This document shows positions 22,820 to 46,742 of a DNA stretch of 64,000 bases, in pieces. Position numbers and translations under genes: made by a program. A model generated the notes under the pieces. It saw nothing but the letters and a program-made list of their open reading frames with translations. It searched no databases and was not told the DNA's origin. Origin of the DNA: an uncultured Gammaproteobacteria bacterium (GTDB lineage Bacteria > Patescibacteriota > Microgenomatia > Levybacterales > GWA1-39-11). Numbering within the stretch: position 1 is the stretch's first letter; every line of letters starts with the position of its first letter. The DNA lies in NCBI GenBank assembly GCA_964504535.1, contig CAZDED010000001.1, forward strand, positions 101,804 to 165,803, given 5' to 3'.

Positions 22820-22821
22820 TG

Positions 22822-30535: not shown

Positions 30536-30536
30536 T

Positions 30537-31229
30537 ATGGAAAATGTAAAAAAACTACCAGCAATACTATATTTAGATAAAAATGGATTTTACTTTTATG
30601 AGGAGGGGTTTCCTAGTGTTGTAAGTCTTGCGTTCCTTGCTACATCCGTAAAAGATATGGATGTAATAAATGGCGCTTCGATTATGACTCAGGTTAAGTC
30701 ATTTATTGACCAATATAAAATACCCCCAGCGATAATAAATATCATTGTTTCACCAAATATCACATTTGAGAAGGACTTTGTAGACCTTACATCAGAGGCT
30801 TTGGAGGAAAAAACAAAAAATTTTGTTGATACGATCCCTTTCGAAAGTGTCATGAGCAAAAGGTACCCAATTGATAAAGGTGTCAAGGGCATCGGATGGA
30901 ATGAAGAACTCTATTTAGAATTAAAGATGAGTTTTGAAAAAAATTCTTTTATAGTTGACCAGGTGATACCATACCAACTTCTGGGCTCTGACCAGACCCT
31001 CATCCAGAATTTTACCCAAGAAAATGCAGCACAACTACTAAGACGAATGGATCATCTTAAGCAATTTACCATGCTAACTGTTTTAAAAGAAAAACCACAA
31101 GTAACTCAAAATGCTGATGATAAAAAGTCATCAAAACCAAAACAGAGCAAAACCAGACTGTATGTCATGGGTGGAATATTTGTGATTCTTTTCATTATTC
31201 TTGGATACATGCTTCTCAATCAAAAATAG
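30537..31229 (+). CDS. Hypothetical protein with a C-terminal TM anchor inside the pilus operon.
   Basis: The 230-aa product has a single C-terminal TM (LYVMGGIFVILFIILGYMLL) and no recognisable pilin N-terminus or ATPase motif. Confidence 0.35.
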   Translation: MENVKKLPAILYLDKNGFYFYEEGFPSVVSLAFLATSVKDMDVINGASIMTQVKSFIDQYKIPPAIINIIVSPNITFEKDFVDLTSEALEEKTKNFVDTIPFESVMSKRYPIDKGVKGIGWNEELYLELKMSFEKNSFIVDQVIPYQLLGSDQTLIQNFTQENAAQLLRRMDHLKQFTMLTVLKEKPQVTQNADDKKSSKPKQSKTRLYVMGGIFVILFIILGYMLLNQK

Positions 31230-31344
31230 ATTTTGATATATTCAGGTTCAAAATACCCTACGAACAATAAATTTTCGATGTTTGCGACCAATTAAAAATT
31301 GGTGCTTGACAAGATTTTTTGGATATGATTAAGTGAATACAGAT

Positions 31345-31827
31345 ATGAAAACTGCCCAGTTGAAAAATCAAAAAGGTTTCACACTCATCGAGTTACTCGT
31401 TGTTATCGGTATACTCGCTGTTCTTCTTGCAATCACTCTTATAGCTATCAATCCAGCAAGACAATTTGCTCAAGCAAATAATACTAAAAGATCATCAGAT
31501 GTTAATGCAATATTAAATGCTGTTGGTCAATATGCTGCAGATAACCATGGATCACTTCCTGCTGGACTTACTGCTAATTGTTCTGCTGCTGCTTGCGACA
31601 TCACGGGAGTTGTCGCTGCAGGAAATATTGATTTGTGTCCAGCGCTTGTAACTTCATACCTTGCTGCTCTTCCAGTAGATCCTTTAACTAATAATGGAAC
31701 TCCAGTATCTACTTGCAATGCAACATATGTAGCAGGTTACACAATTCAAGTAAGCGCAGCTGACAATAGAGTCACCGTTACAGCTCCTGCAGCAGAACTT
31801 AGCCAAGTTATATCAGTAACCAGATAA
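31345..31827 (+). CDS. pilA: Type IV major pilin (PilA-like).
   Basis: MKTAQLKNQKG|FTLIELLVVIGILAVLLAITLIAI is a canonical type IVa prepilin with F+1 and E+5. A C-terminal Cys pair (CSAAAC...C...C) would form the disulfide loop. I chose the ATG at 31345 over the GTG at 31333. Confidence 0.8.
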   Translation: MKTAQLKNQKGFTLIELLVVIGILAVLLAITLIAINPARQFAQANNTKRSSDVNAILNAVGQYAADNHGSLPAGLTANCSAAACDITGVVAAGNIDLCPALVTSYLAALPVDPLTNNGTPVSTCNATYVAGYTIQVSAADNRVTVTAPAAELSQVISVTR

Positions 31828-31845: not shown

Positions 31846-31872
31846 TAAAACACACTGCGGTGTGTTTTTTTG
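31846..31872. terminator. Bidirectional Rho-independent terminator between pilA (+) and dnaJ (-).
   Basis: The stem aaacacac (31848-31855) / gtgtgttt (31860-31867) has a tgcg loop. It is flanked by an A-run upstream and a T-run downstream. Confidence 0.6.
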
Positions 31873-31880: not shown

Positions 31881-32753
31881 TTAGAACCAGTGCTTCTTTT
31901 TTGATTCACGGTCAAACTCTTCAAGAAGTTCCTTTTGTTTTGATGAGAGTTTTGTTGGGATTTCAATTTCAACTCTTACATAATGATCTCCATGTTGCGA
32001 ACTATTTACATGCTTTACGCCTTTACCTTTTATTCTAATAAGAGTTCCTGGCTGAGTCCCTTGCGGAATCTTGAGTTTAACTTTTCCAACTACTGTCTCT
32101 ACCTCTTTGATACTCCCGACAGCAGCCTCCACCATCGTTAACTTGAGATCGGAAACGATATCGTATCCTTCTCTATGAAATTTACTATTTGAAGAAACTG
32201 AAATCACAATATCAAAATCTGAAAACTGTATTCTTGATCCATCATTGACTCCCGCAGGAACCTTTATGTCTTTCCTTGTCCCGTCTAATGAAACGGATTT
32301 TGTTGTTCCTTTAACTGCCTCCATAAAATCGATTCTGAGTGAGTACGAAGGTTTTCTTCTTCCGAAAGGTGTCCCTCCCCCCCCACCAAAAAATTGCTCA
32401 AAAATGTCGAAGGGGTCTGAAAAACCACCAAAATCCTGTGCGCCACCATTTGTTGAATATGAATAAGTAAATGGACCCTGTTGGCCGCCAAACCCTCCAA
32501 ATGGTCCCCCAGCACCCGATCCACGGCCACCATTTTCAAATGAAGCACTCCCGAATTGATCATATTGCTTTCTTTTTTGATCATTACCCAATATCTCGTA
32601 TGCTTGGTTTATTTCCTTAAATTTCTCTTCTGCTTCTTTTGACTTATTTTTGTCAGGATGATACTGCACCGCAAGTTTTCTATAAGCGCTTTTTAGCTCT
32701 GCAGCAGTTGCAGTCTTACTGACACCCAAAACTTTATAAAGATCATTACTCAT
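31881..32753 (-). CDS. dnaJ: DnaJ-family co-chaperone of type B, with a J domain and a G/F region but no zinc-finger domain.
   Basis: The J domain is [32 protein letters not shown] Gly/Phe-rich region ([21 protein letters not shown]) follows, and C-terminal beta-sandwich domains. There are no CxxCxGxG repeats. Confidence 0.8.
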
Positions 32754-32800
32754 ATGTTGTATTTTAGCAGTTTATAGCCTCAATTGCCAGATTCAACTTA

Positions 32801-35074
32801 TCATTGTGGGGTACATTTGAGAGGACATAATTGAATCTTCTTTCCAGACGCCACGCACGTCGGATCTGGGGTACACGTATAATATTGCTCTGGCGTCGGA
32901 GTTGGAGTACCAAGAGGTTCGAATTTACCACTTCCGCCTGGAACCGTCGTTGTTGTTGGAATGAGGGTCGGGGTTGGTGTTGGGGCAATAATAGTAGGTT
33001 GTAAAACAACTGGAGTTGGTGTTGTTTGAAGAGGATTTAGGGCAATAAATAATTTCATCGTCGTTGGTGAACCACTTGGTATAGTAAATGTTCCTTGTCC
33101 AACTATAGAACCTGATACTTTAACAACCAGAGTATACCCACCAGAAGGAACAGTATGAAAAGCGAAGTTACCGCTCGTATCCGTTGTAGCACTTGAATTC
33201 AGTGCTCCAGTTGTCGTAATTTGTGCACCCGAAAATCCTGATTCTCCTGGATCAAAAGTAGAATTACTATTCGTATCAGTATATACCGTACCTATGATTT
33301 CATTTATGATTACCCCTGGAGTAGATCCACCCGGAACTGGACTTGATGTAACAGTGGGAGTAATTGATGACGTTGGATTTGGCGAAGGGTTACCGGATGT
33401 TGCACAGGTTGCAGGTTGCAAGGTTGCTCCAGAACATGTAGGACTTTTTGAAACTCCAAGTGGTTGCTGGTCGATAAGTGTTGCTTGCATTGCTCGGTTA
33501 ACATTGTCACACTCTGTTGAGGAGGCACCATATATGTCACTACAAGCTTGTAAAAAAGAGGTGTATGCGTCTTTGAAATTTGAGGTTGCTGATAAATATT
33601 TTGTTAATGCCAAATATATAATTGGGTAACTTTTAATTCTCCCAATACCGCTCACAGAACACCCGTTAAAATTTCCCCCATCTGTCATAAGATAAAAAGT
33701 TTTATTTATTATTCCGCTATTTATGTGTACTCCACCAAAATCTGCAGCAGTACAAGCAAACGATGAAAGCTTGTCAGGCTGATCTCTTAATAATGGATTA
33801 CTCATTGATCTCAGCGGTACGGGAAGACCAGATGAAGGTGGCAAATTTTCTCCTAATTCCCAATTGTTATCCATCGCACTTCCAAAAATATCAGATACTG
33901 CCTCATTAAGAGCACCTGACTCATTTGAATATATAAGCCCAGCAGTTTCACCAGTTATAGCATGTGTCAATTCGTGACCAGTTACATCAAGAACCACAAG
34001 ACCAGTACAAAAAACCATTTCACTGCCATTCCATTGAGCATTTGGACAACTGTTTCTTGGGGCTCCTCCGGTACCAATATTTGGAGGAACTCTAACATAC
34101 CCATTATAGGAAGCACCCCTATTGTCATAACTGTCTCTATTGAAGTTGAGCTTGAAATAATCATATGCCGTATAAAAATAGTTATATAGATTATCAGACT
34201 CTGTATCTCCAGAAGCAGCTGATCCTTCAGCCCTCACCTTGGGGCATGATGTAGTACCACTACAATTAAAGATGTTTCTATTTAGTAGGTCTCTTGTTTG
34301 AGACTCCGAATAAATAAGTTTTCCATCACTAAGGCTTATGACATATTCTGTCCGAAAAATTGTTGGTTTTCCTTCTGACTTTATCATGATTCTCAATGCA
34401 ATTTGATTTTTTGGATTATCTGAAATACCAAGGAGTTGCTCATTTATATAAATTTTCTTTGCTCCCTCAACCTCAAGATTTGCAGTTTTACTTTCTCCTT
34501 TTGCTATATCTAATGCAAGTTGGATAGCTTTGGATTCCTGGATATTTTGAGAAGTGACTTCTTTTGTTGAAGAAACATTCCCGCTTATGGAATATACTTC
34601 ACTTTCATTTTTAATATGAACTGCAACGGATGACTTATAAATAGGAATGCCATTTAGAGATTGGGTAAAGAAATAATGTTCATTATTGATCACTATCCCG
34701 TTTTTCTTTAGATAACTATCATCCTTGTCTTGAGCTTGACGGGTAGGATTGGCATTTTTCGAAAAACCATCCGGGAACAATGGACCTGAATTTCCAATAG
34801 ATGGATTTTTTTGAATAAACTCTTTAGCTGCATCCAATCCTTTTTTATTCGATTTATAAAGATAAGTGTTTGTCGTGTTGATGGAAAATATTGTTCTTCC
34901 GGTATCTCTTGTTATACTTGAGTAAGGCGTTATTTCTAATGCATCAGTATTCGATTTCCCATTGAGGTATGTTATCAAAAAGCTAGCAAAAAAAACTACA
35001 ATAATAATTACTAATGCTACTAGTTTTGAATGCTTTTTGATTATTTTTTTGGGGGCTCTCAAGAACTCACTCAT
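32801..35074 (-). CDS. Membrane-anchored secreted zinc metalloprotease of family M4 (thermolysin-like), with a Pro/Thr-rich C-terminal region.
   Basis: It has an N-terminal TM (KLVALVIIIVVFFASFLITYL) and a propeptide-like region. The catalytic motif is HELTHAITGETAGLIYSNESGALNEAVSDIFG, i.e. HExxH plus the NEAxSD third zinc ligand. A C-terminal PT-rich linker ends in CTPDPTCVASGKKIQLCPLKCTPQ. Confidence 0.8.
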   Translation of the reverse strand: MSEFLRAPKKIIKKHSKLVALVIIIVVFFASFLITYLNGKSNTDALEITPYSSITRDTGRTIFSINTTNTYLYKSNKKGLDAAKEFIQKNPSIGNSGPLFPDGFSKNANPTRQAQDKDDSYLKKNGIVINNEHYFFTQSLNGIPIYKSSVAVHIKNESEVYSISGNVSSTKEVTSQNIQESKAIQLALDIAKGESKTANLEVEGAKKIYINEQLLGISDNPKNQIALRIMIKSEGKPTIFRTEYVISLSDGKLIYSESQTRDLLNRNIFNCSGTTSCPKVRAEGSAASGDTESDNLYNYFYTAYDYFKLNFNRDSYDNRGASYNGYVRVPPNIGTGGAPRNSCPNAQWNGSEMVFCTGLVVLDVTGHELTHAITGETAGLIYSNESGALNEAVSDIFGSAMDNNWELGENLPPSSGLPVPLRSMSNPLLRDQPDKLSSFACTAADFGGVHINSGIINKTFYLMTDGGNFNGCSVSGIGRIKSYPIIYLALTKYLSATSNFKDAYTSFLQACSDIYGASSTECDNVNRAMQATLIDQQPLGVSKSPTCSGATLQPATCATSGNPSPNPTSSITPTVTSSPVPGGSTPGVIINEIIGTVYTDTNSNSTFDPGESGFSGAQITTTGALNSSATTDTSGNFAFHTVPSGGYTLVVKVSGSIVGQGTFTIPSGSPTTMKLFIALNPLQTTPTPVVLQPTIIAPTPTPTLIPTTTTVPGGSGKFEPLGTPTPTPEQYYTCTPDPTCVASGKKIQLCPLKCTPQ

Positions 35075-35598
35075 TGTTTTTTAATTGACACCTGGGCAGT
35101 TGAATCGGTAGAGTTTTCCAGAGTTACTTCCAACCCATACTCAATGATTTTATCAGTACATTTCCCGGCAATACCCCCACAGGAATAACTTAAAATTTTT
35201 CTTATATCATCTTTTACTAAAGCGATGTCGGTTGTTGCAATACAGTCAAAACATTTCGAATCGGGTAATATTGCTCCTACATATTCTATAGTCACGCTCG
35301 TTGTAGGGACAGTGACGACCTTTCCTTTTATAAGGCTCATTTTAATCGGGGCAGTAGAGGAAGATATTGTGGGAACCGGGGTAATTACTGGAGCTTTCAC
35401 GCCCGGAGTAACCGTTGGAACCACATTGGAGTTATTGCTGTAGATAAAAAATGATCCAAAAATTATAACAAGCGTAATACATACTATGATCGCAATAAGA
35501 ATTATTTTTTTTGTATTTTTTTGACTTGTAGGACTGATCATAGCATTTTGATCAACAACAATGGGAGATTGTGATTGATCAAGTATATTATTTTCCAT
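35071..35598 (-). CDS. Small membrane-anchored extracytoplasmic Cys-containing protein, translationally coupled (ATGA overlap) to the M4 protease gene.
   Basis: It has a TM (KIILIAIIVCITLVIIFGSFFIY), a PT-rich linker and a ~90-aa domain with four Cys (CFDC ... SCGGIAGKC). Confidence 0.4.
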   Translation of the reverse strand: MENNILDQSQSPIVVDQNAMISPTSQKNTKKIILIAIIVCITLVIIFGSFFIYSNNSNVVPTVTPGVKAPVITPVPTISSSTAPIKMSLIKGKVVTVPTTSVTIEYVGAILPDSKCFDCIATTDIALVKDDIRKILSYSCGGIAGKCTDKIIEYGLEVTLENSTDSTAQVSIKKQ

Positions 35599-35609
35599 AC
35601 AAAACTTAT

Positions 35610-38468
35610 TTACTGGATTGCAGTTGTAGGATCTTTTTGCATCTGTGTGCCATCAGATCCTAAGGTTGGCATCGGGTTTGGAGCAGTTGACCCTCCTCCT
35701 ATTCCATCAGCATTAAATGGATTGAACGGCGGAGGTGCCATAGGGTTTTGGATAGGTGTATAAGGATCTACAATCATACTGTTTGTGGGTGTTGGAACCG
35801 GTTGCGTAACACCATTTGCTGGGGGGAAACCTGGTTGTTGTTGAATTGTTGTCCCGTCTGGCGCAACTGGATTTGCCCCAGGAACAGCTGCAGGCGTTGC
35901 ACTTTTAATAAATGTGTACTCACCCTTTGCCATATCGTAATCAATTTTTACGGTATCTCCAACGACAAACTTCTGTCCAATGATTTGAATACTTATTGGA
36001 TTCTCAATGACATTTTGAATAAGTCGTCTCAATGGTCTTGCTCCATAGACTGGGTCAAAACCTTCACCACCAAGCATCTCAAGCGCTTTATCACTAACCT
36101 CTAAATTAAACCCTTGTTCCTTTAAGAGTTTGGCAGTATGACCAATATTAATTTTTGCTATCAATTTCATGTCTTGCTTTCTTAACGGTTTGAAAATAAC
36201 TACTCCATCAAATCTGTTAACAAGCTCCGGTCTAAAGAATTTTGTCAATTCATCCATAAGCTTTTTAGATAAATCTGCAAATACCTTTTGCATATGGGGA
36301 TCTTGATTTGCAACTTTTGGAACCGCAGCAACCGCTCCATTCGCACTAACAACTGAAGCTGTAGTTGTAGCTGTAACCGGTGCTGCTGTAACTGGTTGTG
36401 GCTCTACACCAGGAATTGGAATTTCAGTTGCTCCTATAGGCGCTGTTCCTGTTAGAAGGGTAGTTGTGGATACTGCCTCTGCCTTGGCGTTTGCATCTCC
36501 TTGCTGCTTTGCATTTACTAATGCTTCTTGTATAAGTCCACTTCCAATATTTGATGTTGCAATAACGATTGTATTTTTAAAAGAAATTGTATTTCCTTTG
36601 TTGTCAGTCAGTCTTCCATCCTCAAGGAGCTGAAGAAGAATATTAAACACGTCCGGATGAGCTTTTTCAACCTCATCAAGCAGTACTATTGAATAAGGCT
36701 TTGCACGCACTGCCTCAGTTAATTGACCTCCTTCTTCGTAACCCACATATCCTGGGGGCGCACCTATGAGTTTTGCAACTTCGTGCTTTTCCATATATTC
36801 AGACATATCGAGTCTGATCATCGCATCATCTTTTCCAAATAATATTTCGGCCAAAGTTTTTGCAAGCTCTGTCTTTCCAACTCCTGTTGGTCCTAAGAAA
36901 ATAAATGACGCAATAGGCCTATTGGCGCTGGCAAGACCAATTCTTCCACGCCTAACTGCTTCGGCAACAGCTGAAACCGCCTCCTCTTGATCAATAAGTC
37001 TTTTATGGATGAGGTCCTCAAGCTGTAGCAACTTTTTGCCTTCATCCTCAGTAAGTCTTGTTATAGGAATTCCTGTCCAGTCAGAAACTACTTTCTCTAT
37101 GTCTGCTCTTGATACATTCGAATCTTGCCTTTGACCCTCAGCCTTTTTTAGCTTAACCTCAGCAGCAGCTTCGTCAAGAAGGTCAATCGCCTTGTCGGGA
37201 AGGTACCGCTCTCCAACATATTTCTTAGACAATGTAACAGAAAATTTTATAGCATCAGGAGTCAGAACAACCTCATGAAACTTTTCGTATTTTTCCTTTA
37301 ATACTTCAAGCATTTTCATTGCCGTCTCCTCATTTGGTTCATCAACGATTACAGACTGAAAACGCCTCTGAAATGCCTTGTCTTTCTCAAAATACTTTCG
37401 ATATTCGGCTGTCGTTGTGGTTCCGATCAATTGTAATTGACCGCGAGCAAGATATGGTTTTATTATGTTTGAAGCATCCATGGCTCCTCCACCTTCTTCT
37501 CCTGCCCCTATCAATGTGTGGATTTCATCAATAAAGAGAAGGATCTTCCCGCCACTGACCTGAACTTCTTTTATGACATTTTTGAGTCTTTCTTCAAATT
37601 CTCCCCGGTGAGATGCTCCGGCAATAAGGGCAGCCAAATCAAGCTGGATAATCTTTTTATCTTTCAACTGATCAGGAACTGTTCCTGCAATTATTTTTTG
37701 AGCAAGTCCTTCAATAACAGCAGTCTTACCTACCCCTGCTTCTCCAATAATGATGGGGTTATTTTTTGTGCGCCTCAACAGAATATGAACAAGTCTCTCT
37801 ATTTCCTTATCGCGACCAATCACCGGATCCAATTTCCCATCTTTTGCTTCGTTGGTAAGATCAATCCCAAATTGCTCAAGAACAGATTTTTTTCCGGCTG
37901 CCTGAAAGGTAGGATTTTTAGAAAGATTTTTTTCAAGACCCTCCTTCTGTACACCTTTGGAGGAGAGGTATTGAGATGTAGTATCAGAATTAAAAAGTGA
38001 CAAAAGGATATCTTCAGGAGTTATAAAACTAGATCCTCTATTTTTAGCCATGGTAAATGCATCATCAAATATTTTTTGAGAAACAGGGGAAAGAACGGGT
38101 GGGCCTTCAAATGTTCCTGGAGTTTGTTTTTGCTGCAGCTCACGAGCCAGATCCCCTGCATTAACAGTAAACTCTTGAAGTGTCTTATATACTTCTTTGT
38201 CATAAAGAAGCCCTAGCAAAACAATATCGGGCTCAATGAGGGCTAGTTTTGCTTTTTTTGCTTCATTTTGAGCTTGTTGAAGAACTTGATTTGCCCGTGC
38301 GTCTAAATGCGTTAGACTCTCCACATTTTGTCTTTTTACGGGATCCATGCCAGCAGGCTGTATAGGACTTTCCACAACCTGTTGTGGTTGATTAGCATTT
38401 TGAGCTACTTGATCTCCAGGCCCTTCACCTTCTCCGTATTTTTTTGTACTAAATAAATTTCCAAACAT
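35610..38468 (-). CDS. ClpB/ClpC-type Hsp100 AAA+ chaperone ATPase with two intact NBDs, an insertion in NBD2 and a long Pro-rich C-terminal tail.
   Basis: It has Clp_N repeats. NBD1 has IIIGEAGVGKTA and LLFIDEIHTLIGAG. NBD2 has FIFLGPTGVGKTE and IVLLDEVEKAHPDVFNILLQLLEDGRLTD. A ~75-aa Ala/Thr/Pro-rich insertion follows NBD2 Walker B. The C-terminal ~110 aa are P/G/Q-rich. Confidence 0.85.
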   Translation of the reverse strand: MFGNLFSTKKYGEGEGPGDQVAQNANQPQQVVESPIQPAGMDPVKRQNVESLTHLDARANQVLQQAQNEAKKAKLALIEPDIVLLGLLYDKEVYKTLQEFTVNAGDLARELQQKQTPGTFEGPPVLSPVSQKIFDDAFTMAKNRGSSFITPEDILLSLFNSDTTSQYLSSKGVQKEGLEKNLSKNPTFQAAGKKSVLEQFGIDLTNEAKDGKLDPVIGRDKEIERLVHILLRRTKNNPIIIGEAGVGKTAVIEGLAQKIIAGTVPDQLKDKKIIQLDLAALIAGASHRGEFEERLKNVIKEVQVSGGKILLFIDEIHTLIGAGEEGGGAMDASNIIKPYLARGQLQLIGTTTTAEYRKYFEKDKAFQRRFQSVIVDEPNEETAMKMLEVLKEKYEKFHEVVLTPDAIKFSVTLSKKYVGERYLPDKAIDLLDEAAAEVKLKKAEGQRQDSNVSRADIEKVVSDWTGIPITRLTEDEGKKLLQLEDLIHKRLIDQEEAVSAVAEAVRRGRIGLASANRPIASFIFLGPTGVGKTELAKTLAEILFGKDDAMIRLDMSEYMEKHEVAKLIGAPPGYVGYEEGGQLTEAVRAKPYSIVLLDEVEKAHPDVFNILLQLLEDGRLTDNKGNTISFKNTIVIATSNIGSGLIQEALVNAKQQGDANAKAEAVSTTTLLTGTAPIGATEIPIPGVEPQPVTAAPVTATTTASVVSANGAVAAVPKVANQDPHMQKVFADLSKKLMDELTKFFRPELVNRFDGVVIFKPLRKQDMKLIAKINIGHTAKLLKEQGFNLEVSDKALEMLGGEGFDPVYGARPLRRLIQNVIENPISIQIIGQKFVVGDTVKIDYDMAKGEYTFIKSATPAAVPGANPVAPDGTTIQQQPGFPPANGVTQPVPTPTNSMIVDPYTPIQNPMAPPPFNPFNADGIGGGSTAPNPMPTLGSDGTQMQKDPTTAIQ

Positions 38469-38493
38469 AGTTAATTATATGCAGATATCAACT

Positions 38494-40617
38494 CTAAACT
38501 CCAGGAGCACCTCCAGGCTGACTTCCCGGCTCATCTTTTGGCTCGTCAGTTGGCAATTCTTGTTGCATTGCCATCTCGGCATGTCCAGCCTTACTTACAT
38601 CATCAGCTCTATCAACCATTGTGTCTTCCTCTTCTTTCTTTTGATCTACGGCTGTTAATACAGACTTGGCAGCTTCCATTTTTGCCTTAAGATATGAGAT
38701 AACTTCAGTCTTTGAGAATCCACCCAAAAGTAAGAATGGCAAGATATTTGCTACCCGCTCCATTCCCCTATCAACATTATCCTGGTTCTCAGAACTGAGA
38801 AGATTGATGGTCTCAGTTATGTTTTCTACATCTTGCTGTATAAATGAATGCTTGTCTGATGGAATTCCGTTTGGTCCGACTGGAGTTTCCATATTTTGAT
38901 AATTTTCTTGCCACATTTTCTTAACATCTTCATATTCTTCTATGCTTACCTGCTGAACCTGATTCGTTTGTGGCAACTTTACATCCTTAATATTTGCGAG
39001 TGATTCTTTTTTCTGTCCTGGTAATACTGCCTTGGTTTTGTTATTTACTTCTTCAGATACTTTAGAAGCAGATAAAACGTTGTCGGCCAATTTGTCTCCT
39101 TGTTTTTGTTGAGCAACAAGCTTTTCTTTAATTGTTGTGAATTTCTCCCTATCATGTGTGGCGGTCGCAGTGGTCGGCTTTGAGATCTTTTCGAGTGTTT
39201 CATGGAACTTGTTTACCTCGGTTCTTGAAACACTATCATGCTTCATCATTGATGTCTCATATCGCGCGATGTCTCTCATCTTAGGAACAGTAAGATTTGC
39301 AAGGCGCAATACGTCACGAGTCTCCCTTACAGATTGCAGACTACTTAGTGATGCCCGCTCCAATGTACTTGTTGTTCTTGAGGCAGGAATTTCCATCGAA
39401 CGTTTGTTGAAGAATGGAATGCTCTTAGCAAGTCCAAATGGTGAAGGTTGCTGCGGTGGCTGGCCCGGGGCAGGGGACGGTCCACCATACGCCTTATTAA
39501 ACCAGGAGTTTGAGGTAATTTTTTTAACAACCGGGCTTTCTCCAATTGACATCCCGGAAAGATAATCAAGAAATATTTGGAGCAATAAGAATGGCAAGAG
39601 AATTACCACCCAAAGCATGAGAAGAGCGACAACATACAGGGCAAAGGTATCATTAACATTTACCGAATTATCCAATCCAATTTGCTGGCCAGGCCCTCCA
39701 AGCAAGATATTTATAGCGGTCTTGTACCTGACTTGATCAGGAACATTTTTTGAAAAATCAAAAAACATCGGTATCCCACTTCTCCAAACATTCACAAGAC
39801 CGTGAAGAAATAGCGCAAACAATGGAGCGTATAGTAGCCAACGGAAAAACTCTCCTATCCAAATTTTTGCTGTATTTTTGACGGGTCGGAAAAATAAAAG
39901 GAGCGGAAATATTGGAGAAACGATAATAAAAAACCACAAGATGATTTTTCTTATGATAAGAAGTCCTGTCATGACATAGTAGGTTATTGCCGTAAGTTTT
40001 ACTAAAAGAAGAGATATAAATGCGGACTCGTCATATTCTATACCGACCTTCCTAAAACCAAGGAAATCGTATTGGAACGCAATATAGAGAAGATCTCTTG
40101 AATCAATATTTCGATTTGTTCCATCTAGGGGATCTTTTATGTTGAGGAAAAATCCTTGTAAAACATCCGTCGCTTGGTACAGAAACCTGATAATAGCAAA
40201 AGACAGTACAACAAGAACTACAATAAAGATGAAACGGGGAATAAATTTCATAATTGTCAGATTTTGACCGCGGGTTATGATCATTACAAAGGCAGATCCC
40301 AAAACAAATAGAGCCAAAAGTACAAAAACGATATTTCTAACAAGTGCCCAAAATGTTTGAATAGGATTTTCACCCGTAGAAGGCAATACAATCCATTTAT
40401 AATTTTGACTTTGAAGTGTCCAATCAAGAAAATTGTTGGCTCGGGTTGCAGTTTTACCGACAAAGGTAACTTCCTGATCTTTTACCCATCCTGTTGTGAC
40501 ATCAGGGGCTGTTGTAGGAACTGCTTGTGCATGGGTGGGACGACTAAAAGAGAAAAAGCCAACAAAAAGTATTGAAAATAAAAGGACTTTGATAAATCTG
40601 GGCAGTTTGTTATGCAT
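38494..40617 (-). CDS. Polytopic membrane protein (signal peptide, ~6 TM, then a ~380-aa hydrophilic coiled-coil/acidic C-terminal domain) with a VirB6/TrbL-like architecture. The likely start is MHNKLPRF at 40617.
   Basis: MHNKLPRFIKVLLFSILFVGFFSFSRPTHAQA is a signal peptide. Multiple long hydrophobic helices lie between residues ~120 and 400. The C-terminal half is charged, K/E/Q-rich, and ends in a DEPKDEPGSQPGGAPGV tail. Its ATG lies 1 nt after the stop of the upstream small gene. Confidence 0.5.
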   Translation of the reverse strand: MHNKLPRFIKVLLFSILFVGFFSFSRPTHAQAVPTTAPDVTTGWVKDQEVTFVGKTATRANNFLDWTLQSQNYKWIVLPSTGENPIQTFWALVRNIVFVLLALFVLGSAFVMIITRGQNLTIMKFIPRFIFIVVLVVLSFAIIRFLYQATDVLQGFFLNIKDPLDGTNRNIDSRDLLYIAFQYDFLGFRKVGIEYDESAFISLLLVKLTAITYYVMTGLLIIRKIILWFFIIVSPIFPLLLFFRPVKNTAKIWIGEFFRWLLYAPLFALFLHGLVNVWRSGIPMFFDFSKNVPDQVRYKTAINILLGGPGQQIGLDNSVNVNDTFALYVVALLMLWVVILLPFLLLQIFLDYLSGMSIGESPVVKKITSNSWFNKAYGGPSPAPGQPPQQPSPFGLAKSIPFFNKRSMEIPASRTTSTLERASLSSLQSVRETRDVLRLANLTVPKMRDIARYETSMMKHDSVSRTEVNKFHETLEKISKPTTATATHDREKFTTIKEKLVAQQKQGDKLADNVLSASKVSEEVNNKTKAVLPGQKKESLANIKDVKLPQTNQVQQVSIEEYEDVKKMWQENYQNMETPVGPNGIPSDKHSFIQQDVENITETINLLSSENQDNVDRGMERVANILPFLLLGGFSKTEVISYLKAKMEAAKSVLTAVDQKKEEEDTMVDRADDVSKAGHAEMAMQQELPTDEPKDEPGSQPGGAPGV

Positions 40618-40618
40618 A

Positions 40619-40936
40619 TCAAGAAAATCCTGGAATATGTAGAATATTCGTCGCGACAACCTGAATAAATACAAACCCAAAAATCGCAAGCAAAATCCCA
40701 ATGATGGCGTATGTTATATATGATTTACCTGTTTGAAGCTGCGCAGGATCCCCCCGAGATATAAGAATGTGGTATCCACCTATAATAAGAAAAAGTAATC
40801 CAACCAAGCCAATGAGTCCAAGCCCCCACGTATAAAATTTGCCTACAAAACCCGCAGGAGAACTAGGAAGACATCCAAAATCTGTCAGTATTTCGTTAGG
40901 CAAGCAGGTTAGAGCCATACTCATTAATACTAGCAT
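40619..40936 (-). CDS. Small (105 aa) two-helix membrane protein resembling the TrbC/VirB2-type (T4SS pilin-like) fold.
   Basis: An N-terminal hydrophobic, signal-like segment is followed by GKFYTWGLGLIGLVGLLFLIIGGYHILISRGDPAQLQTGKSYITYAIIGILLAIFGFVFIQVVATNIL. This is two hydrophobic helices flanking a short polar loop, as in VirB2/TrbC pilins. It lies 34 nt downstream of dnaK. Confidence 0.4.
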   Translation of the reverse strand: MLVLMSMALTCLPNEILTDFGCLPSSPAGFVGKFYTWGLGLIGLVGLLFLIIGGYHILISRGDPAQLQTGKSYITYAIIGILLAIFGFVFIQVVATNILHIPGFS

Positions 40937-40970
40937 TTTTTATGCTTGCAAGGCAATGTTTTTGGAAAAA

Positions 40971-42896
40971 TTAACTAACTACTTCGCCTTCTTCGGCGTC
41001 TTCTTTCTTTGAGGAACTGTCGTCGGTGTTGTCGTCCGATTTTGGCTCTTCCGAACCTGTATTTTTATGTTCTTCCGTACCCTGTCCACTGTCTCCTGTC
41101 CCTTGATTCGCATACATCTTTTCTCCGACCTTTGAGATTTTCTCTGAGAGATCCTTTGTTTTTGATTCGATCTCATCCTTGTCTTCTCCATCTTTTACCT
41201 TTTTTAACTCGGAAATTGCCTCTTCTACTTCCTTTTTGTCCGCCTCTTCAATTTTCCCTTCCATATCTTTCATTGATTTTTCTGCCGTAAAGATGAGATT
41301 ATCAGCACTATTTTTTACCTCAATAAGTTCTTTCTTTTTCGCATCCTCATCTGCATGCATTTCTGCATCCTGGGTCATCTTTTTGATTTCATCATCTGTA
41401 AGCCCAGTTGAACCTGTTATTTTGATGCTTTGCTCTTTCCCAGTTGCCTTATCTTTTGCTGTTACAGACAAGATTCCTGACGCATCGATGTCAAAAGTTA
41501 CCTCAACTTGCGGTACTCCCCGAGGTGCAGGTGGAATTCCATCCAATATAAATCGTCCGAGTGACTTGTTGTCGTTTGCCATTGGACGCTCTCCCTGAAC
41601 AACATTAATTTCGACTTGTGTTTGATTATCAGCTGCTGTTGAGAATACTTGTGATTTTTTACTTGGAATTGTTGTATTTTTCTCAATTAATGGAGTTGCA
41701 ACTCCACCCATTGTTTCGATTCCAAGCGTCAAAGGTGTAACGTCTAACAAAAGCACATCTTTCACTTCTCCACCCAGAACCCCAGCCTGTACTGCAGCAC
41801 CAACTGCAACAACTTCGTCCGGATTTACTGATTTATTTGGTTCTTTGCCAAAGAATTTTGATACTTCCTCAATTATTTTTGGCATTCTCGTCATACCTCC
41901 AACAAGAATTACCTCATCAATTCCTGATGTTTCAACCTTAGCATCTTTTAAAGCCTGCTTGACTGGTCCAAATGATTTTTCAACAAGGGGGGAAACCAAT
42001 TGCTCCAACTTTGATCGTGGGATTTTAACCGTTAAGTGAAGTGGTCCATTTGGTCCTTGAGTTATAAATGGTTGATTGATCTCAGCTTCCATTGATGAAG
42101 ATAACTCAATTTTTGCTTTCTCAGCAGACTCTTTAAGTCTTTGTAGAGCTTGAGGATCGGACCGAAGATCAATATTATTGTCCTTCTTAAATTCATCTGC
42201 TAGGTAATCGATAAGTACTTGATCAAAATCATCTCCACCAAGATGAGTGTCTCCGTTCGTTGCTTTTACCTCATATACTCCTTCTCCCAATTCGAGGACT
42301 GAAATATCAAATGTTCCTCCTCCAAGATCATAAACTGCTACTGTATGTGCATGTTTTTTGTCTAACCCATAAGCTAGTGCTGCTGCTGTTGGTTCGTTAA
42401 CGATTCGGAGTACTTCAAGTCCAGCAATTTCTCCAGCCTGTTTTGTGGCTTGTCTTTGGGCATCGTCAAAATATGCAGGAACGGTAATAACAGCTTGAGT
42501 TATTTTGTCTCCCAAATAATCCTCGGCATCCTTTTTTAGTTTTTGAAGAATTTGTGCAGAAATTTCTTGTGGAGTAAATGTTTTACCATCAACCTCAACA
42601 ACAGCCATGCCTTCGCGCCCAGACTTTACATCGTATGGCAAAAGCTTAAGGTCTTTTTGGACAGACTCGTCTTTCAATTTTCGACCCATAAGTCTTTTTA
42701 CTGAAAAGACAATCTTTTTTGGTTTTAGAACCATCTGACGCTTTGCAACATCACCAACAACTCTCTCGATTGGATCGACAACCGAAGGAGTAGTGTTTCT
42801 TCCTTCAGATGAAAAGATGACTTTTGGAGAGCCTCCCTCCATTACAGCCATACATGAATTTGTTGTTCCTAAATCTATTCCTATAATTTTTCCCAT
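40971..42896 (-). CDS. dnaK: Molecular chaperone DnaK (Hsp70).
   Basis: It begins [22 protein letters not shown] and contains [13 protein letters not shown] and [13 protein letters not shown]. It has an acidic, Gly-poor C-terminal tail. Confidence 0.95.
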
Positions 42897-42947
42897 ATGT
42901 TTTTAATTATTTAATAAACTTTATACTTTATTCTATATTCTATATTC

Positions 42948-43454
42948 TTAATTCTTAAGGTCTTCCCCGTTACCAACTTTTACCTGTGCTGGACGGATCA
43001 GTCTTCCATTTATCATAAATCCCGGTCTTACTTCTTCAATTACGGTGTCTTTGGCTCCAGGTACCACTTCTATCACTTCCATTGAGTCTGCATTATATTT
43101 TACATTCTCACACTGTATCTTATCAATACCATTTTGTTGTAAGACTTCAAGTATTCTTCCGATTGTCAATTTTACACTCTCATCTGTTGTATATTTTCCT
43201 GCCAAAAAGAGTGTATCAAATGCAGGCAAAAGTGCTTCTATTAATTGCTTGTTTGCAAATTTGACTGCCTCACTTCTTTCATCAAAACTTCTTCTTTCTA
43301 AGTTTCTATAGTCTGCTACTGCCCGTTTTAGTTGCTCATCAAGTTCTTGTATCTTTACATCCCGTTCGTCTACCTCTTCGGTAATCTCCTCAATAATTTC
43401 TTCTTCGTCCTTTTTATCTTGTTTTATCTTATTATTATCCATCGCACTAATCAC
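42948..43454 (-). CDS. grpE: Nucleotide exchange factor GrpE.
   Basis: It has an acidic N-terminus and a coiled-coil (DYRNLERRSFDERSEAVKFANKQLIEALLPAFDTL). The C-terminal beta domain reads EVVPGAKDTVIEEVRPGFMINGRLIRPAQVKV. Confidence 0.9.
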   Translation of the reverse strand: MISAMDNNKIKQDKKDEEEIIEEITEEVDERDVKIQELDEQLKRAVADYRNLERRSFDERSEAVKFANKQLIEALLPAFDTLFLAGKYTTDESVKLTIGRILEVLQQNGIDKIQCENVKYNADSMEVIEVVPGAKDTVIEEVRPGFMINGRLIRPAQVKVGNGEDLKN

Positions 43455-43480
43455 TATTTACTAATTCCTAATCACTGATT

Positions 43481-44203
43481 TTACCATCCTGCAACTTCTT
43501 CTATTAAAGAGCCGTAGTATCTTACTAGTGGTACGATATTTTCGTATCGAAGTCTTGCAGGCCCGATAACTCCAATAGTACCATCATGATTTCCTCGCGT
43601 GTGGAATTTAGAAAACACAAAACTGTATGGTTTGAATAGTTCTAATTCCAAATCTTCTCCCAAAATTACTGAAAATTTCTCATGAATATTTCCAAAAATC
43701 GTATCAAAATAAGTTGAATTATCTAATAAATTTAATAAATTCTTCGTGACATCGATGTCATAAAATTCTGGCATATCCAAAATGTGAGAGTATCCAGAAC
43801 AGTAAAAGTCACCCATGTCATTTCTCGCAACCGCCAATGTTCCTGTTTTATCAGCTAGTCTCTGAGTTGCTGTACGCATGAATTCTCCTTCTTTTTCCCG
43901 TACATCCCAAACCTTTTCTTTTGCTTCAACCTCCTCAGCAACTGAAAGATCCTTCTCTTTCATTAATTCATTGACGTACAGTTTCATCGCTTTTGAAGTC
44001 GGAATACGGCCAGCCGATGTATGAGGTTTTGCAAGATATCCCTTTTTGACCATTACGGCCATCTCGTTCCTTATCGTAGCGGGGCTCACACCTACATCAT
44101 ACTTTTTCTCCAATGTTTCGGAGCCGACTGGGTTTGCCGTATCGATATATTCTTTAACTATCTGCTTTAATATCTCGATTTGTCTCTGTGTTAAATCGTA
44201 CAT
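43481..44203 (-). CDS. hrcA: Heat-inducible transcription repressor HrcA (short form).
   Basis: It has an N-terminal winged helix (LTQRQIEILKQIVKEYIDTANPVGSETLEKKYDVGVSPATIRNEMAVMVKKGYL), and a CIRCE operator lies immediately upstream. Confidence 0.85.
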   Translation of the reverse strand: MYDLTQRQIEILKQIVKEYIDTANPVGSETLEKKYDVGVSPATIRNEMAVMVKKGYLAKPHTSAGRIPTSKAMKLYVNELMKEKDLSVAEEVEAKEKVWDVREKEGEFMRTATQRLADKTGTLAVARNDMGDFYCSGYSHILDMPEFYDIDVTKNLLNLLDNSTYFDTIFGNIHEKFSVILGEDLELELFKPYSFVFSKFHTRGNHDGTIGVIGPARLRYENIVPLVRYYGSLIEEVAGW

Positions 44204-44268
44204 AATAAGATTGTAATGAAGTTAATGAATTCAATCTCATATAACCTTCCGTTTGGTGATATACGAGA

Positions 44269-44295
44269 TTAGCAATACTATATCACGAGTGCTAA
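44269..44295. promoter_or_regulatory. CIRCE operator (HrcA binding site): TTAGCAATA-N9-GAGTGCTAA.
   Basis: The half-sites are at 44269-44277 (7 of 9 matches to TTAGCACTC) and 44287-44295 (a perfect GAGTGCTAA), separated by a 9-nt spacer. It lies 66 nt upstream of the hrcA ATG. Confidence 0.8.
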
Positions 44296-44305
44296 ATTAT
44301 GTCAA
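44277..44305 (-). promoter_or_regulatory. Sigma-A-type promoter for the hrcA operon that overlaps CIRCE (TTGACA-17-TATAGT).
   Basis: On the minus strand the -35 TTGACA is at 44305-44300 and the -10 TATAGT at 44282-44277, with a 17-nt spacer. CIRCE occupies the spacer and the -10, which is the classic arrangement. Confidence 0.5.
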
Positions 44306-44334
44306 GCCCCTCCTATTTATGGTACTCTAGACGC

Positions 44335-44670
44335 ATGCAGAAAAGGAAAAAATTGATCCCACATTTGATTATTGCCATACTTGCACTTCTTGGCGTAACA
44401 CTGTTAGTTATTACTTTTAGTCCCGCCCGTCACATAGATTTATCTTTTACAAAACTTTCCCCAGTCATACCATTTTTCTTATGCGTCTTTCTCTCAATAG
44501 CCGGAATATTAGGGTTTATTTTGAATAATTTGAGACACGGTATCCTCGCAGCACTATTTGCAGTTGCTTTTTTCCTTTTGCAAATGATGCGGTACAACAA
44601 TATTTTTTACACAATAATACTCATTATTATCTTTGTTCTTCTTGAATTTCTTTTTTGGAAAAAGAAGTGA
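44335..44670 (+). CDS. Small 4-TM membrane protein. The ORF-track start at 44299 would overlap the hrcA promoter, so the Met at 44335 is preferred.
   Basis: Hydrophobic helices are found at LIPHLIIAILALLGVTLLVITF, VIPFFLCVFLSIAGILGFIL, GILAALFAVAFFLLQMM and FYTIILIIIFVLLEFLFW. There is no recognised motif. Confidence 0.35.
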   Translation: MQKRKKLIPHLIIAILALLGVTLLVITFSPARHIDLSFTKLSPVIPFFLCVFLSIAGILGFILNNLRHGILAALFAVAFFLLQMMRYNNIFYTIILIIIFVLLEFLFWKKK

Positions 44671-46618: not shown

Positions 46619-46742
46619 CTCCTTTACATTATAATGATGAACTATTCAAGTTCAAATCATTCAATTTCTATCAGTATAGCACCGAGAGTGCTAATTTGTC
46701 AATACTTCCTATCTCTGGTATGATTGGTTTACTTTAACCCCT

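Follow-up and report, generated by a model that had tools for sequence, protein, structure and literature searches.

Introduction

A described system close to the locus reported here is the heptacistronic dnaK operon of Bacillus subtilis, ordered hrcA-grpE-dnaK-dnaJ-prmA-yqeU-yqeV, which carries non-chaperone genes and has both a heat-inducible promoter ahead of hrcA and a constitutive internal promoter giving heat-independent expression of the distal genes (PMC2952846). A second point of comparison is the patescibacterial type IV secretion system (T4SS), which is related to MPF-FATA and comprises VirB4, VirB3/PrgI, VirB6 and arrays of VirB2-like pilins (Quinonero-Coronel et al., 2025; PMC12102498). 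In Patescibacteria the VirB2-like pilins are often encoded apart from virB4, and a recognisable VirB6 is 'scarce' in Microgenomatia; DnaK, Clp and proteases go unmentioned in that study (PMC12102498).

Here a locus from an uncultivated, ultra-small member of the Levybacteria (CPR/Patescibacteria) is compared with these systems, the window being the whole 64,000-nucleotide stretch of DNA analysed. With somewhat better than even confidence we read it as a composite locus of three units rather than one operon, together with a proposed mechanism linking an Hsp100 ATPase to a VirB6-like protein. No dnaK operon of such composition, nor any description of the envelope module or its linkage to dnaK, was found in the literature searched, in keeping with the original prediction.

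Organisation of the locus

The minus strand carries nine co-directional genes, tightly packed as originally described, with successive intergenic gaps of 26, 51, 34, 1, 25, 11, -4 and 47 nt. Gene identities were checked with Pfam and NCBIfam, and together with a motif search for the HrcA operator CIRCE this bore out the predicted gene content and order:

43481..44203, minus strand: hrcA, short 240-aa form (Pfam HrcA 71.9 bits, cut-off 22.2)
42948..43454, minus strand: grpE (Pfam GrpE, E = 2.4e-29)
40971..42896, minus strand: dnaK (NF001413 DnaK 970 bits, cut-off 648)
40619..40918, minus strand: VirB2-like pilin (PF18895 T4SS_pilin 27.5 bits, cut-off 26.6)
38494..40617, minus strand: TrbL/VirB6-like polytopic protein, 707 aa (hydropathy; PF04610 matches of homologues)
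35610..38468, minus strand: two-ring Clp/Hsp100 ATPase, 952 aa (Clp_N, NBD1, NBD2, D2-small)
35071..35598, minus strand: small anchored protein, 175 aa (one TM helix, Pro/Thr linker, beta domain of ~85 aa)
32801..35074, minus strand: membrane-anchored M4 (thermolysin-type) metalloprotease (Pfam Peptidase_M4_C, E = 7.5e-42; Peptidase_M4, E = 1.1e-13; FTP)
31881..32753, minus strand: dnaJ, class B type (Pfam DnaJ and DnaJ_C)
31847..31868, minus strand: terminator-like hairpin directly 3' of dnaJ (9-bp stem and T-run)

The GC content of the block equals that of its flanks. Type IV pilus genes converge on the block, facing the hairpin on the dnaJ side.

As in B. subtilis, hrcA comes first, a CIRCE element lies over a sigma-A/sigma-70-type promoter and extra co-directional non-chaperone genes are present; an additional internal promoter is also common to both, here as a prediction. 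The extra genes differ, encoding membrane or extracytoplasmic proteins and an Hsp100 in place of methyltransferases and lying, in this clade, between dnaK and dnaJ. The chaperone genes differ too, with dnaJ having a CIRCE-like operator of its own. HrcA, 240 aa in the relatives also, scores 189.3 against TIGR00331 (cut-off 197.2), its match being split in two, with no counterpart to the central part of the model. The 290-aa DnaJ has a J-domain, G/F region and C-terminal domains but no zinc finger; it reaches 240 against TIGR02349 (cut-off 377), again in two stretches, while the 291-aa PRK14299 model is matched over its full length.

The Clp/Hsp100 ATPase

In ClpB the M-domain mediates coupling to DnaK, while ClpA and ClpL are Hsp100s in which this domain is absent or short. 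ClpV/TssH of the type VI secretion system (T6SS) and HSP101 of the Plasmodium PTEX translocon are Hsp100 ATPases dedicated to transport machines; both are paralogues that stand outside general proteostasis, tied by gene location or by assembly to an apparatus at the membrane.

The ATPase of the locus resembles the ClpB-DnaK bichaperone in having Clp_N, two AAA+ modules and a D2-small domain and in being encoded beside dnaK, dnaJ and grpE; its NBD2 carries a low-complexity insertion and its C-terminal tail is Pro-rich. Its closest sequence matches are ClpB and ClpC, as the label 'ClpB/C-like' implied, but that label fits only in part, the protein having neither M-domain nor ClpP loop and falling below cut-off against the ClpB equivalog (888 bits, cut-off 1232), ClpA (725 bits, cut-off 993) and TIGR03345 ClpV (694 bits, cut-off 885) models. 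The alignment with E. coli ClpB skips ClpB residues ~407-527, so the whole M-domain is missing, and nearly all of ~60 orthologues have a spacing of 36 aa from LPDKAID to GIP. The N-NBD1-NBD2 arrangement without an M-domain is common to ClpA. The protein is nonetheless nearer ClpB/ClpC than ClpA, and it differs from ClpA and ClpL in lacking the IGL/IGF ClpP-docking loop, [ILVM]G[FL] being absent from that position in all ~60 orthologues. A further departure from ClpB is the NBD1 pore loop, where SH replaces KY (Tyr-to-His); 54 of the 55 orthologues compared have SH or AH there, and all 55 retain GYVGY. The earlier description of this protein as a disaggregase does not sit well with an ATPase lacking the very domain through which ClpB couples to DnaK. 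ClpV and HSP101 act on the T6SS sheath and the EXP2 pore respectively, whereas the partners here are others and no component of the T6SS or PTEX is present.

The pilin, VirB6-like and extracytoplasmic proteins

The search for protein families identified the small ORF after dnaK as a T4SS_pilin, and an NCBIfam match to the Mbov_0395 pilin-like protein lies under cut-off (E = 1.6e-6). The ORF of 105 aa begins at 40936, but if M7 is the start the pilin has ~99 aa, with two TM helices. It adjoins the VirB6-like gene on the upstream side in 78/78 loci.

For the large ORF, whose true start is the ATG at 40617, the same search was less direct. The window protein has no Pfam match, while 14 of 26 aligned homologues match PF04610 TrbL (best E = 4.6e-6) and many more did so in a further Pfam search. 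Its N-terminus is hydrophobic and by eye resembles a signal peptide. A further ~5 TM helices and a Pro-rich linker are present, and the C-terminal ~300 aa form a conserved helical domain that we infer to be cytoplasmic. The AF2 model is all helical (pLDDT 65), and a search of folds and the PDB gave no match to this protein. The homology to VirB6 is weak.

A PF18895 VirB2-like pilin adjoining a TrbL/VirB6-like polytopic protein is what the locus has in common with the patescibacterial T4SS, and related loci also have pilin arrays and a cell-wall hydrolase (SpoIID-like in L057). The differences are that the ATPase here is a Clp/Hsp100 and the genes stand at the dnaK locus and not in the dnaA/virB4 region; VirB4, VirD4 and VirB3 are absent from the block and from the Pfam scans of window ORFs.

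The small anchored protein has four invariant Cys (CFDC...SCGGIAGKC) in its beta domain. The protease has an FTP propeptide motif, the HEXXH site (HELTH...NEAVSD), a CarboxypepD_reg-like domain and a Cys-rich C-terminus; S8 or M4-M28 proteases take the place of M4 in relatives.

Conservation across Levybacteria and Microgenomates

The comparison set comprised 80 species-level loci. The module is linked to the dnaK locus in ~64/68 assessable Levybacteria species loci, but in six loci (L057, L061, L062, L082, L089 and L091) it occurs without dnaK nearby. The insertion between dnaK and dnaJ is likewise present here but is just one of two equally common arrangements, with dnaJ following the module at 26 dnaK loci and preceding it at 29, so that about half of the species have a canonical hrcA-grpE-dnaK-dnaJ followed by the module. 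Among the 62 loci whose downstream sequence is long enough, the M-domain-less ATPase gene lies 3' of the VirB6-like gene in 57 and upstream of it in two more.

Since the wider neighbourhood (hsp20, metRS, PEGA-SH3, UbiA, GT4) is also syntenic in relatives, unrelated flanking genes included, linkage to dnaK could be inheritance without selection. A rather unlikely reading is that the genes are neighbours by history only, without shared function, kept together in compact CPR genomes with few rearrangements: Clp would be the general stress unfoldase of the lineage beside DnaK/DnaJ, the pilin and VirB6-like protein would belong to the cell's T4SS apart from virB4, and the protease would serve nutrition or host attack. 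The frequent separation of VirB2-like pilins from virB4 and the scarcity of VirB6 (PMC12102498) are compatible with this, as are a Daviesbacteria locus with pilins and a VirB6-like gene in which the Clp gene is absent, and a protease that varies in type or goes undetected, an M4 or S8 enzyme being detected in 37/53 loci. Protease and small protein are variable or undetected in ~30% of loci, which also tells against the composite reading. Against a bond of history only, the triad of pilin, VirB6-like and Clp genes outlasts rearrangements that part it from dnaK (L057, L061, L062, L089, L091; in the first three it stands beside pilin arrays and a SpoIID-like hydrolase) or that move dnaJ, and the ATPase is a distinct subfamily, without M-domain or ClpP loop and with the pore-loop Tyr-to-His change, that accompanies the module in 59/62 loci.

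Promoters and CIRCE elements

Three promoter-like elements were located on the minus strand:

44269..44305, minus strand: P1, sigma-70-type promoter with CIRCE (-35 TTGACA 44305-44300; extended -10 TGaTATAGT 44285-44277)
40927..40956, minus strand: P2, promoter-like element (-35 TTGCCT 40956-40951; 18-nt spacer; extended -10 TGcTAGTAT 40935-40927)
32761..32790, minus strand: P3, CIRCE-like operator and promoter (CTGGCAATT-N9-AACTGCTAA at 32790-32764)

The predicted promoter overlapping CIRCE before hrcA was recovered as P1 (TTGACA-17-TGaTATAGT, 44305-44277), with 11/12 consensus matches. The operator, TTAGCACTC-N9-TATTGCTAA (44295-44269), is the sole match with <=3 mismatches in the 64 kb scanned, against 0.04 expected, and 53 related loci also carry CIRCE 5' of hrcA, its spacer containing the -10.

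The extended -10 of P2 ends 8 nt 5' of the pilin ATG at 40918. The motif TGnTAC(T/G)AT stands 3-12 nt (mostly 6-8) before an in-frame pilin start in 64/75 loci, compared with about 0-10% at control genes (dnaK 0/56, VirB6-like 1/65, S8 0/18), and it is a DNA-level signal because its reading frame relative to the pilin gene varies. CIRCE was found before neither the pilin nor the Clp gene in the loci compared. P2 matches the E. coli consensus at 8/12 positions, under the threshold of a simple promoter scan, and by such a scan terminator-like and promoter-like matches inside the block are not commoner than in shuffled sequence. Conservation and consensus suggest that P2 is the module's own promoter, without CIRCE, and its spacing to the ATG suggests a leaderless module mRNA.

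In P3 the left CIRCE-like arm doubles as the -35 and the right arm enters the extended -10 TGcTAAAAT (32769-32761; hexamer 32766-32761), 7 nt 5' of the dnaJ ATG, with a 9/12 consensus match with TG. A relaxed CIRCE pattern gave six matches in the window (both strands counted) against 0.21 expected, and in 1.37 Mb it fell before hrcA 53 times, dnaJ 23 times, hsp20 14 times and elsewhere twice. The P3-type element is kept in 23 loci, in all of which dnaJ lies 3' of the module, a pattern that, with the consensus, suggests that dnaJ stands behind its own putative CIRCE-like promoter.

The original prediction was of one nine-gene transcript from a single HrcA/CIRCE-controlled promoter, through which the cytoplasmic chaperones would be induced jointly with an envelope quality-control or surface-remodelling system. 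Tight co-directional packing, the strong P1/CIRCE, a terminator only after dnaJ and the dnaK linkage kept in most species all fit such a transcript, and heat-shock induction would be plausible for both a Clp/Hsp100 ATPase and a J-protein. The super-operon is nevertheless weakened by P2 and P3, conserved across species, because independent promoters inside the block were what the prediction itself had set against a single transcript. With the pilin preceded by an element lacking CIRCE and dnaJ by its own CIRCE-like site, the module found also away from dnaK, dnaJ directly after dnaK in half of the species and the DnaK-coupling M-domain missing from the ATPase, one transcript now appears improbable.

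A proposed composite locus and a possible envelope machine

Mobile DNA as the origin of the module, such as what is left of an integrative conjugative element (ICE) inserted between dnaK and dnaJ, is scarcely credible. Conjugative elements do typically carry VirB2-like and VirB6-like genes, and the NCBIfam match of the pilin is to a pilin-like protein from an ICE of Mycoplasma. Pfam scans of 49 window ORFs, among them all predicted proteins >=110 aa, nevertheless turned up no integrase, relaxase, VirB4 or VirD4, and the block has none of these. A search for defence-system or phage signatures found none, GC content does not set the block apart, and in dozens of species, down to ~40% protein identity, the module occupies one and the same place in the chromosome.

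In the composite locus that we favour, hrcA-grpE-dnaK would form one unit behind a promoter occluded by the CIRCE operator, the five-gene envelope module a second on its own extended -10 promoter without CIRCE, and dnaJ a third behind its own CIRCE-like promoter. Since the stretch from dnaK to the pilin gene contains no predicted terminator, the module would probably be expressed at a basal level from P2 and boosted by read-through once HrcA repression is lifted; heat-inducible transcription could thus run on from the hrcA promoter into the module. At the membrane the Hsp100 hexamer might dock on the VirB6-like protein, at its large C-terminal domain, and supply the unfolding or extraction force, the role that VirB4 has in the T4SS. 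This force could drive assembly or turnover of the pilin-like subunit, or protein movement at the membrane, while the anchored protease and the small Cys protein may act on the outer face.

The core of pilin, VirB6-like protein and M-domain-less ATPase is an autonomous, conserved Microgenomates unit made from type IV secretion parts without VirB4, and the module built around it is probably an envelope machine driven by the Hsp100.

Gene content of the dnaK block

The interval 44203-31881 is filled by nine minus-strand ORFs separated by gaps of 26, 51, 34, 1, 25, 11, -4 and 47 nt, bearing out the nine co-directional genes, the gene order and the short gaps of the original prediction. Protein identities were taken from Pfam and NCBIfam scans, with hydropathy and inspection of the sequences used for TM and motif details:

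HrcA, minus strand, 240 aa; Pfam HrcA, 71.9 bits, above cut-off
GrpE, minus strand; Pfam/NCBIfam
DnaK, minus strand; 970 bits
Pilin ORF, minus strand, 105 aa; PF18895 T4SS_pilin, 27.5 bits with the cut-off at 26.6
Membrane protein, minus strand, 707 aa from its true start at ATG 40617
Clp/Hsp100 ATPase, minus strand, 952 aa; Pfam Clp_N, AAA, AAA_lid_9, AAA_2 and ClpB_D2-small
Small anchored Cys protein, minus strand, 175 aa
M4 metalloprotease, minus strand; FTP, M4, M4_C and CarboxypepD_reg-like domains
DnaJ, minus strand, 290 aa; J, G/F and DnaJ_C regions only

HrcA falls slightly under the TIGR00331 cut-off (189.3 against 197.2) because around 100 central residues are absent. The pilin ORF also matches the Mycoplasma ICE pilin-like family (NCBIfam), with its paralogues in L057, a related locus, additionally matching PF04956 TrbC/VirB2. 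The protease is anchored at its N-terminus and retains HELTH...NEAVSD intact, corresponding to HEXXH and the downstream Glu ligand, and with Peptidase_M4 and M4_C both above their cut-offs it is a Peptidase M4 (thermolysin) family member. DnaJ has no CxxCxGxG zinc-finger domain, with zero Cys in the whole sequence and a TIGR02349 score of 240 against 377, and is classified on its sequence as a class B (CbpA-like) J-protein, not class A. The GC content of the block is no different from that of its flanks, and neither Rfam nor tRNA scanning of the window gave matches.

The VirB6-like membrane protein

The 707-aa protein has at its N-terminus a hydrophobic segment resembling a signal peptide. Some five more TM helices and a Pro-rich linker precede the C-terminal domain, which is hydrophilic and spans ~300 aa. 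The window's own copy had no family match in the Pfam and NCBIfam scans, including none to PF04610 (TrbL/VirB6); PF04610 was matched by 14 of 26 aligned homologues (E <= 0.1; best 4.6e-6), and precomputed annotation places the domain in many more. A fold search of an AF2 model (pLDDT 65) against the PDB returned helical-bundle noise only (best E = 0.2) and no relative emerged when PDB sequences were searched with a profile, such that VirB6 homology rests on the Pfam matches in homologues, from which the protein is probably VirB6-like. HMM searches placed the VirB2-like orf105 of the original prediction in PF18895, but gave no family for its orf700 (the 707-aa protein) and no Pfam match for its orf175 (the small Cys protein).

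The VirB4 ATPase is the signature protein of type IV secretion systems (T4SS). No VirB4 was present in the block or in Pfam scans of 49 window ORFs, with all predicted proteins of at least 110 aa included.

The Clp/Hsp100 ATPase

The ATPase has the features of the Hsp100/Clp class I AAA+ proteins, namely two AAA+ modules with located Walker A sites and, by inspection, DE Walker B motifs. Its closest alignments were to ClpB and ClpC, in keeping with the ClpB/C-like ATPase originally described, but it lacks both the M-domain of the former and the ClpP loop of the latter. Aligned to E. coli ClpB, it skips residues ~407 to ~527, the stretch that forms the coiled-coil M-domain between NBD1 and NBD2, and the LPDKAID-to-GIP spacing is 36 residues in nearly all of ~60 orthologues. 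The [ILVM]G[FL] ClpP-docking loop was absent from all ~60 orthologues in the NBD2 region from sensor-1 to RPE(F/L)xNR, with ATPases of the window clade carrying a 50-65-residue low-complexity insertion where the loop would sit. The NBD1 pore loop is SH (or AH), not KY, in 54 of 55 orthologues, with the GYVGY of NBD2 retained in 55/55. Identity as ClpA or ClpC, the partners of ClpP, was rejected on the missing docking loop and on scores under the curated cut-offs, ClpB was ruled out by the missing M-domain and by a score of 888 bits where the cut-off is 1232, and ClpV fell under its curated cut-off. The absence of the M-domain and of the ClpP loop, together with the SH/AH pore loop, assigns the ATPase to a distinct Hsp100 subfamily. 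An anti-phage defence system was discarded, PADLOC giving only generic AAA+ matches to the NBD2 region and no specific match of module proteins.

A second ATPase gene of this type is present in the window:

20471-22957, minus strand, second Clp-type ATPase, probable start 22819

The protein is membrane-anchored through two hydrophobic helices at its N-terminus and contains two AAA+ modules, with no IGF loop and apparently no M-domain, the last judged only from the spacing of Pfam domain matches. Relatives carry the gene directly behind dnaJ or the module, and it may be part of the same conserved neighbourhood.

Conservation and arrangement of the locus

Homologues of the 707-aa protein occur in Candidatus Levybacteria and other Microgenomates (CPR/Patescibacteria), and contigs with homologues at 80%, 64%, 50% and 44% identity all have hrcA-grpE-dnaK-pilin-membrane protein-Clp-(small ORF)-protease-dnaJ, the protease in these four being M4, S8 or an M4-M28 fusion. 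One genome per species was scanned, giving 80 loci onto which the window proteins were mapped by tblastn. The pilin gene lies immediately 5' of the membrane-protein gene in 78/78 loci, 57 of 62 loci have the Clp gene downstream and two have it upstream, and an M4 or S8 protease was detected in 37/53. Synteny was upheld, with the module kept beside the dnaK locus in most of the 80 loci. The window's gene order, and with it the insertion between dnaK and dnaJ originally proposed, is found in 26 loci (plus 8 partial), but in 29 others (plus 1) the canonical hrcA-grpE-dnaK-dnaJ is followed by the same module. The 'insertion' is one of two equally common arrangements, the module adjoining the dnaK locus in both. 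In 4 loci there is no dnaK within 6 kb of the module.

A constant tie between module and dnaK did not hold, the module being found away from dnaK in the related loci L057, L061, L062, L089 and L091. Three of these (L057, L061, L062) have Clp-pilin-x-pilin-pilin-pilin-VirB6-like-SpoIID-like hydrolase, the order in L089 is pilin-pilin-VirB6-like-Clp-pilin, an S8 protease gene being close by, and L091 has pilin-VirB6-like-Clp beside greA. The Clp genes of these loci are all without the M-domain, as is that of L092, which has the dnaJ-before-module arrangement and a VirB6-like protein of 1339 aa. Loci without a Clp gene are exceptions, L007 having a VirB6-like gene and two S8 proteases, and L090 (Daviesbacteria; 5679-11165 of that locus) having three pilin genes and a VirB6-like gene directly upstream of groES-groEL. 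The triad of pilin, VirB6-like and Clp genes persists away from dnaK with few Clp-less exceptions, and its internal linkage is therefore stronger than the linkage of the module to dnaK. With L090, the module is seen next to an operon of the HrcA regulon for a second time.

Gene tables of relatives show that the entire neighbourhood is syntenic within the lineage, and as such the dnaK linkage alone is no proof of shared function. A mobile-element origin was rejected on the conserved position, a GC content equal to that of the flanks and the lack of mobility genes. Five loci with the window's arrangement (L011, L013, L014, L017, L019) have an extra insert of ~2.7 kb between dnaK and the pilin gene, with the pilin promoter motif still beside the pilin gene. 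The title 'uncultured Gammaproteobacteria bacterium' on dozens of Levybacteria/Microgenomates MAG records (L009-L088) is a labelling artefact and unreliable as taxonomy.

Hydropathy gives the 175-aa protein a single TM helix, and the protein is fast-evolving, with just 12 homologues found, among which four Cys are invariant. A profile of the protein located a counterpart 3' of the Clp gene in both arrangements, also beside S8 proteases. Its beta domain gave a confident model that matches generic beta-sandwiches only.

Other features of the window include:

23304-31827, plus strand, type IV pilus cluster (PilB, PilC and several prepilin-like ORFs, one of them of 993 aa and without Pfam match) between dnaJ and the second Clp gene
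5733-13880, plus strand, HlyD-MacB(ABC)-FtsX and HlyD-AcrB efflux-type genes, the organism being presumed a single-membrane CPR cell
17948-18280, minus strand, Phage_holin_4_2 family ORF

Three related loci (L002, L004, L005) have no pilus cluster at this position, their order being dnaJ-x-Clp-2-Hacid_dh-polyprenyl synthase, and the cluster therefore resembles an insertion specific to the clade, running convergent to dnaJ.

Transcription signals

Candidate signals assigned in the window were as follows:

44305-44277, P1, promoter before hrcA, TTGACA-17-TGaTATAGT
44295-44269, CIRCE overlapping P1, TTAGCACTC-N9-TATTGCTAA
40956-40951 (-35, TTGCCT) and 40935-40927 (-10, TGcTAGTAT), minus strand, P2, promoter-like element before the pilin gene
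32790-32761, minus strand, P3, CIRCE-like promoter in the 47-nt protease-dnaJ gap
46668-46694, minus strand, CIRCE-like site before hsp20 (46618-46181), kept in 14 related loci
56010-56036, minus strand, CIRCE-like site before groES (55953-55648), relaxed pattern
8997-9023, plus strand, CIRCE-like site at the HlyD/AcrB pump operon, TTGGCAGTT-N9-AATTGATAA with an internal -10 TGATACAAT

P1 is the best promoter match of the region and its overlap with a CIRCE operator agrees with the original prediction. The operator differs from the consensus TTAGCACTC-N9-GAGTGCTAA by 2 mismatches and is the only window match at <=3 mismatches, with 0.04 expected in 64 kb. The CIRCE before hrcA is kept in 53 related loci, essentially all of them, with an extended -10 within the spacer. 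A second site precedes hsp20, and degenerate copies are found 5' of dnaJ, hsp20 and groES. Where loci share the window's order, alignment of the sequence 5' of dnaJ revealed a conserved 9-N9-9 inverted repeat, CT(A/G)GCAAT-N-(A/T)TTGCTAA followed by AAT, of which the left arm is -35-like and the right arm enters an extended -10, TGcTAAAAT, ending ~7 nt from the ATG.

A relaxed CIRCE pattern, [ACT]T[AG]GCA-N15-TG[CA]TA[AG], searched over 1.37 Mb of loci gave coding-strand matches at hrcA (53), dnaJ (23), hsp20 (14) and elsewhere (2), with the dnaJ matches limited to loci in which dnaJ is downstream of the module. No CIRCE was found before the pilin or Clp genes. In the window the pattern has 6 matches, counting both strands, against 0.21 expected. 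The candidate HrcA regulon appears small and clearly delimited, consisting of hrcA-grpE-dnaK, dnaJ, hsp20 and groES-groEL with lineage-specific CIRCE variants and promoters of leaderless type. The 8997-9023 site lies 7 nt before the HlyD-like ORF (9030) heading the AcrB-type RND transporter gene (10533-13880), and the operon may be an unexpected member of the regulon or the site a chance match. Divergent from hrcA is a 123-aa ORF (44299-44670, plus strand) for a small multi-TM protein, present in at least ~20 related loci at 30-81% identity and missed by gene callers in several relatives, which may share the hrcA operator, its ATG abutting the CIRCE.

Both arrangements have a motif TGnTAC(T/G)AT upstream of the pilin gene, usually 6-8 nt from the start codon, and it is likewise present in loci whose pilin gene is set apart from dnaK/dnaJ by 1-6 kb of other genes. 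The motif keeps no constant frame with the gene and is therefore a signal in the DNA rather than coding sequence. At control genes the frequency of the extended -10 was 0-13%.

Extended -10 motifs located 3-12 nt 5' of the in-frame start codon (loci with the motif/loci counted)
Pilin: 64/75
dnaJ: 22/57
dnaK: 0/56
Membrane-protein gene: 1/65
S8 protease: 0/18
Second Clp gene: 0/14
hrcA, grpE and Clp: 5-7 of 52-61 each

The pilin start codon is likely ATG 40918 (M7 of the 105-aa ORF), and the same promoter-to-ATG geometry is found at metRS and tgt. Extended -10 motifs lie 5-12 nt before the start codons of metRS (44706), tgt (15509) and ORF 9030. A Shine-Dalgarno sequence is absent from most genes here, such that its presence cannot tell operon-internal from operon-leading genes; taken with the promoter-to-ATG geometry, this makes it plausible that leaderless transcripts are frequent in this organism.

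A simple promoter/terminator scan gave counts at shuffled-sequence level and missed P2, and being uninformative leaves cross-species conservation as the only informative guide to promoters. Terminator-like matches in the block numbered 13 against 10.1 +/- 2.6 in shuffles, with none within an intergenic gap, and a terminator-like hairpin follows dnaJ at 31868-31847. The single promoter and nine-gene super-operon originally proposed are not supported, given the conserved pilin -10 (64/75) and the CIRCE-like dnaJ promoter (23 loci). The conserved motifs instead suggest three promoter-bearing units, two of the three promoter-like elements having CIRCE-type operators. The 34-nt gap between dnaK and the pilin gene has no predicted terminator, so that transcription from the hrcA promoter may read through into the module.

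Relation to known systems and possible function

In B. subtilis the dnaK operon includes non-chaperone genes as well as a constitutive promoter within it (PMC2952846), and the block shares with it both non-chaperone genes and an internal promoter-like element. A 2025 survey of patescibacterial T4SS described VirB2-like pilins and found VirB6 to be scarce in Microgenomatia, making no mention of DnaK, Clp or proteases (PMC12102498). The VirB2-type pilin is common to these systems and the module, but VirB4 was not found among the window ORFs. Literature searches on Levybacteria/dnaK, Patescibacteria/hrcA, PF18895, M-domain-less Hsp100 and leaderless Patescibacteria promoters gave nothing relevant beyond PMC12102498, in agreement with the original view that no such dnaK operon is known to have been described. 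The locus brings together variants of two things already known, an extended dnaK locus and a T4SS-derived module, and is not categorically new. The module within it is real and conserved, and uncharacterised in the literature. The locus has a composite architecture and conserved synteny, and a distinctive Hsp100 subfamily is tied to T4SS-type membrane proteins.

The module would have basal expression from its own promoter and heat-inducible read-through. The Hsp100 would act on or with the VirB6-like protein, functionally replacing VirB4, while the protease and small Cys protein would work outside the membrane. It is a speculative and rather unlikely reading that the pilin-like protein, the VirB6-like channel and the M-domain-less Hsp100 form an unrecognised AAA+-driven Microgenomates membrane machine in which a Clp unfoldase replaces VirB4, either to build a VirB2-type surface filament or to thread cytoplasmic or membrane proteins outward to the anchored M4/S8 protease. 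Threading, if true, would be an 'extrude-and-degrade' quality-control route wired to a heat-shock locus.

The CPR/Patescibacteria make up a large, mostly uncultivated share of the diversity of bacteria, with surface machinery that is considered the basis of their dependence on host cells. The locus reveals a conserved, unreported partnership of T4SS-type membrane parts with a distinctive Hsp100 subfamily, the stable attachment of which to the dnaK locus spans a candidate phylum. If the ATPase does not power the module, the finding is still corrective in that tight co-directional packing here does not equate to one operon; if it truly does, an apparatus derived from a T4SS would be energised in a new way, which may also partly account for the reported scarcity of recognisable VirB6 homologues in Microgenomatia.
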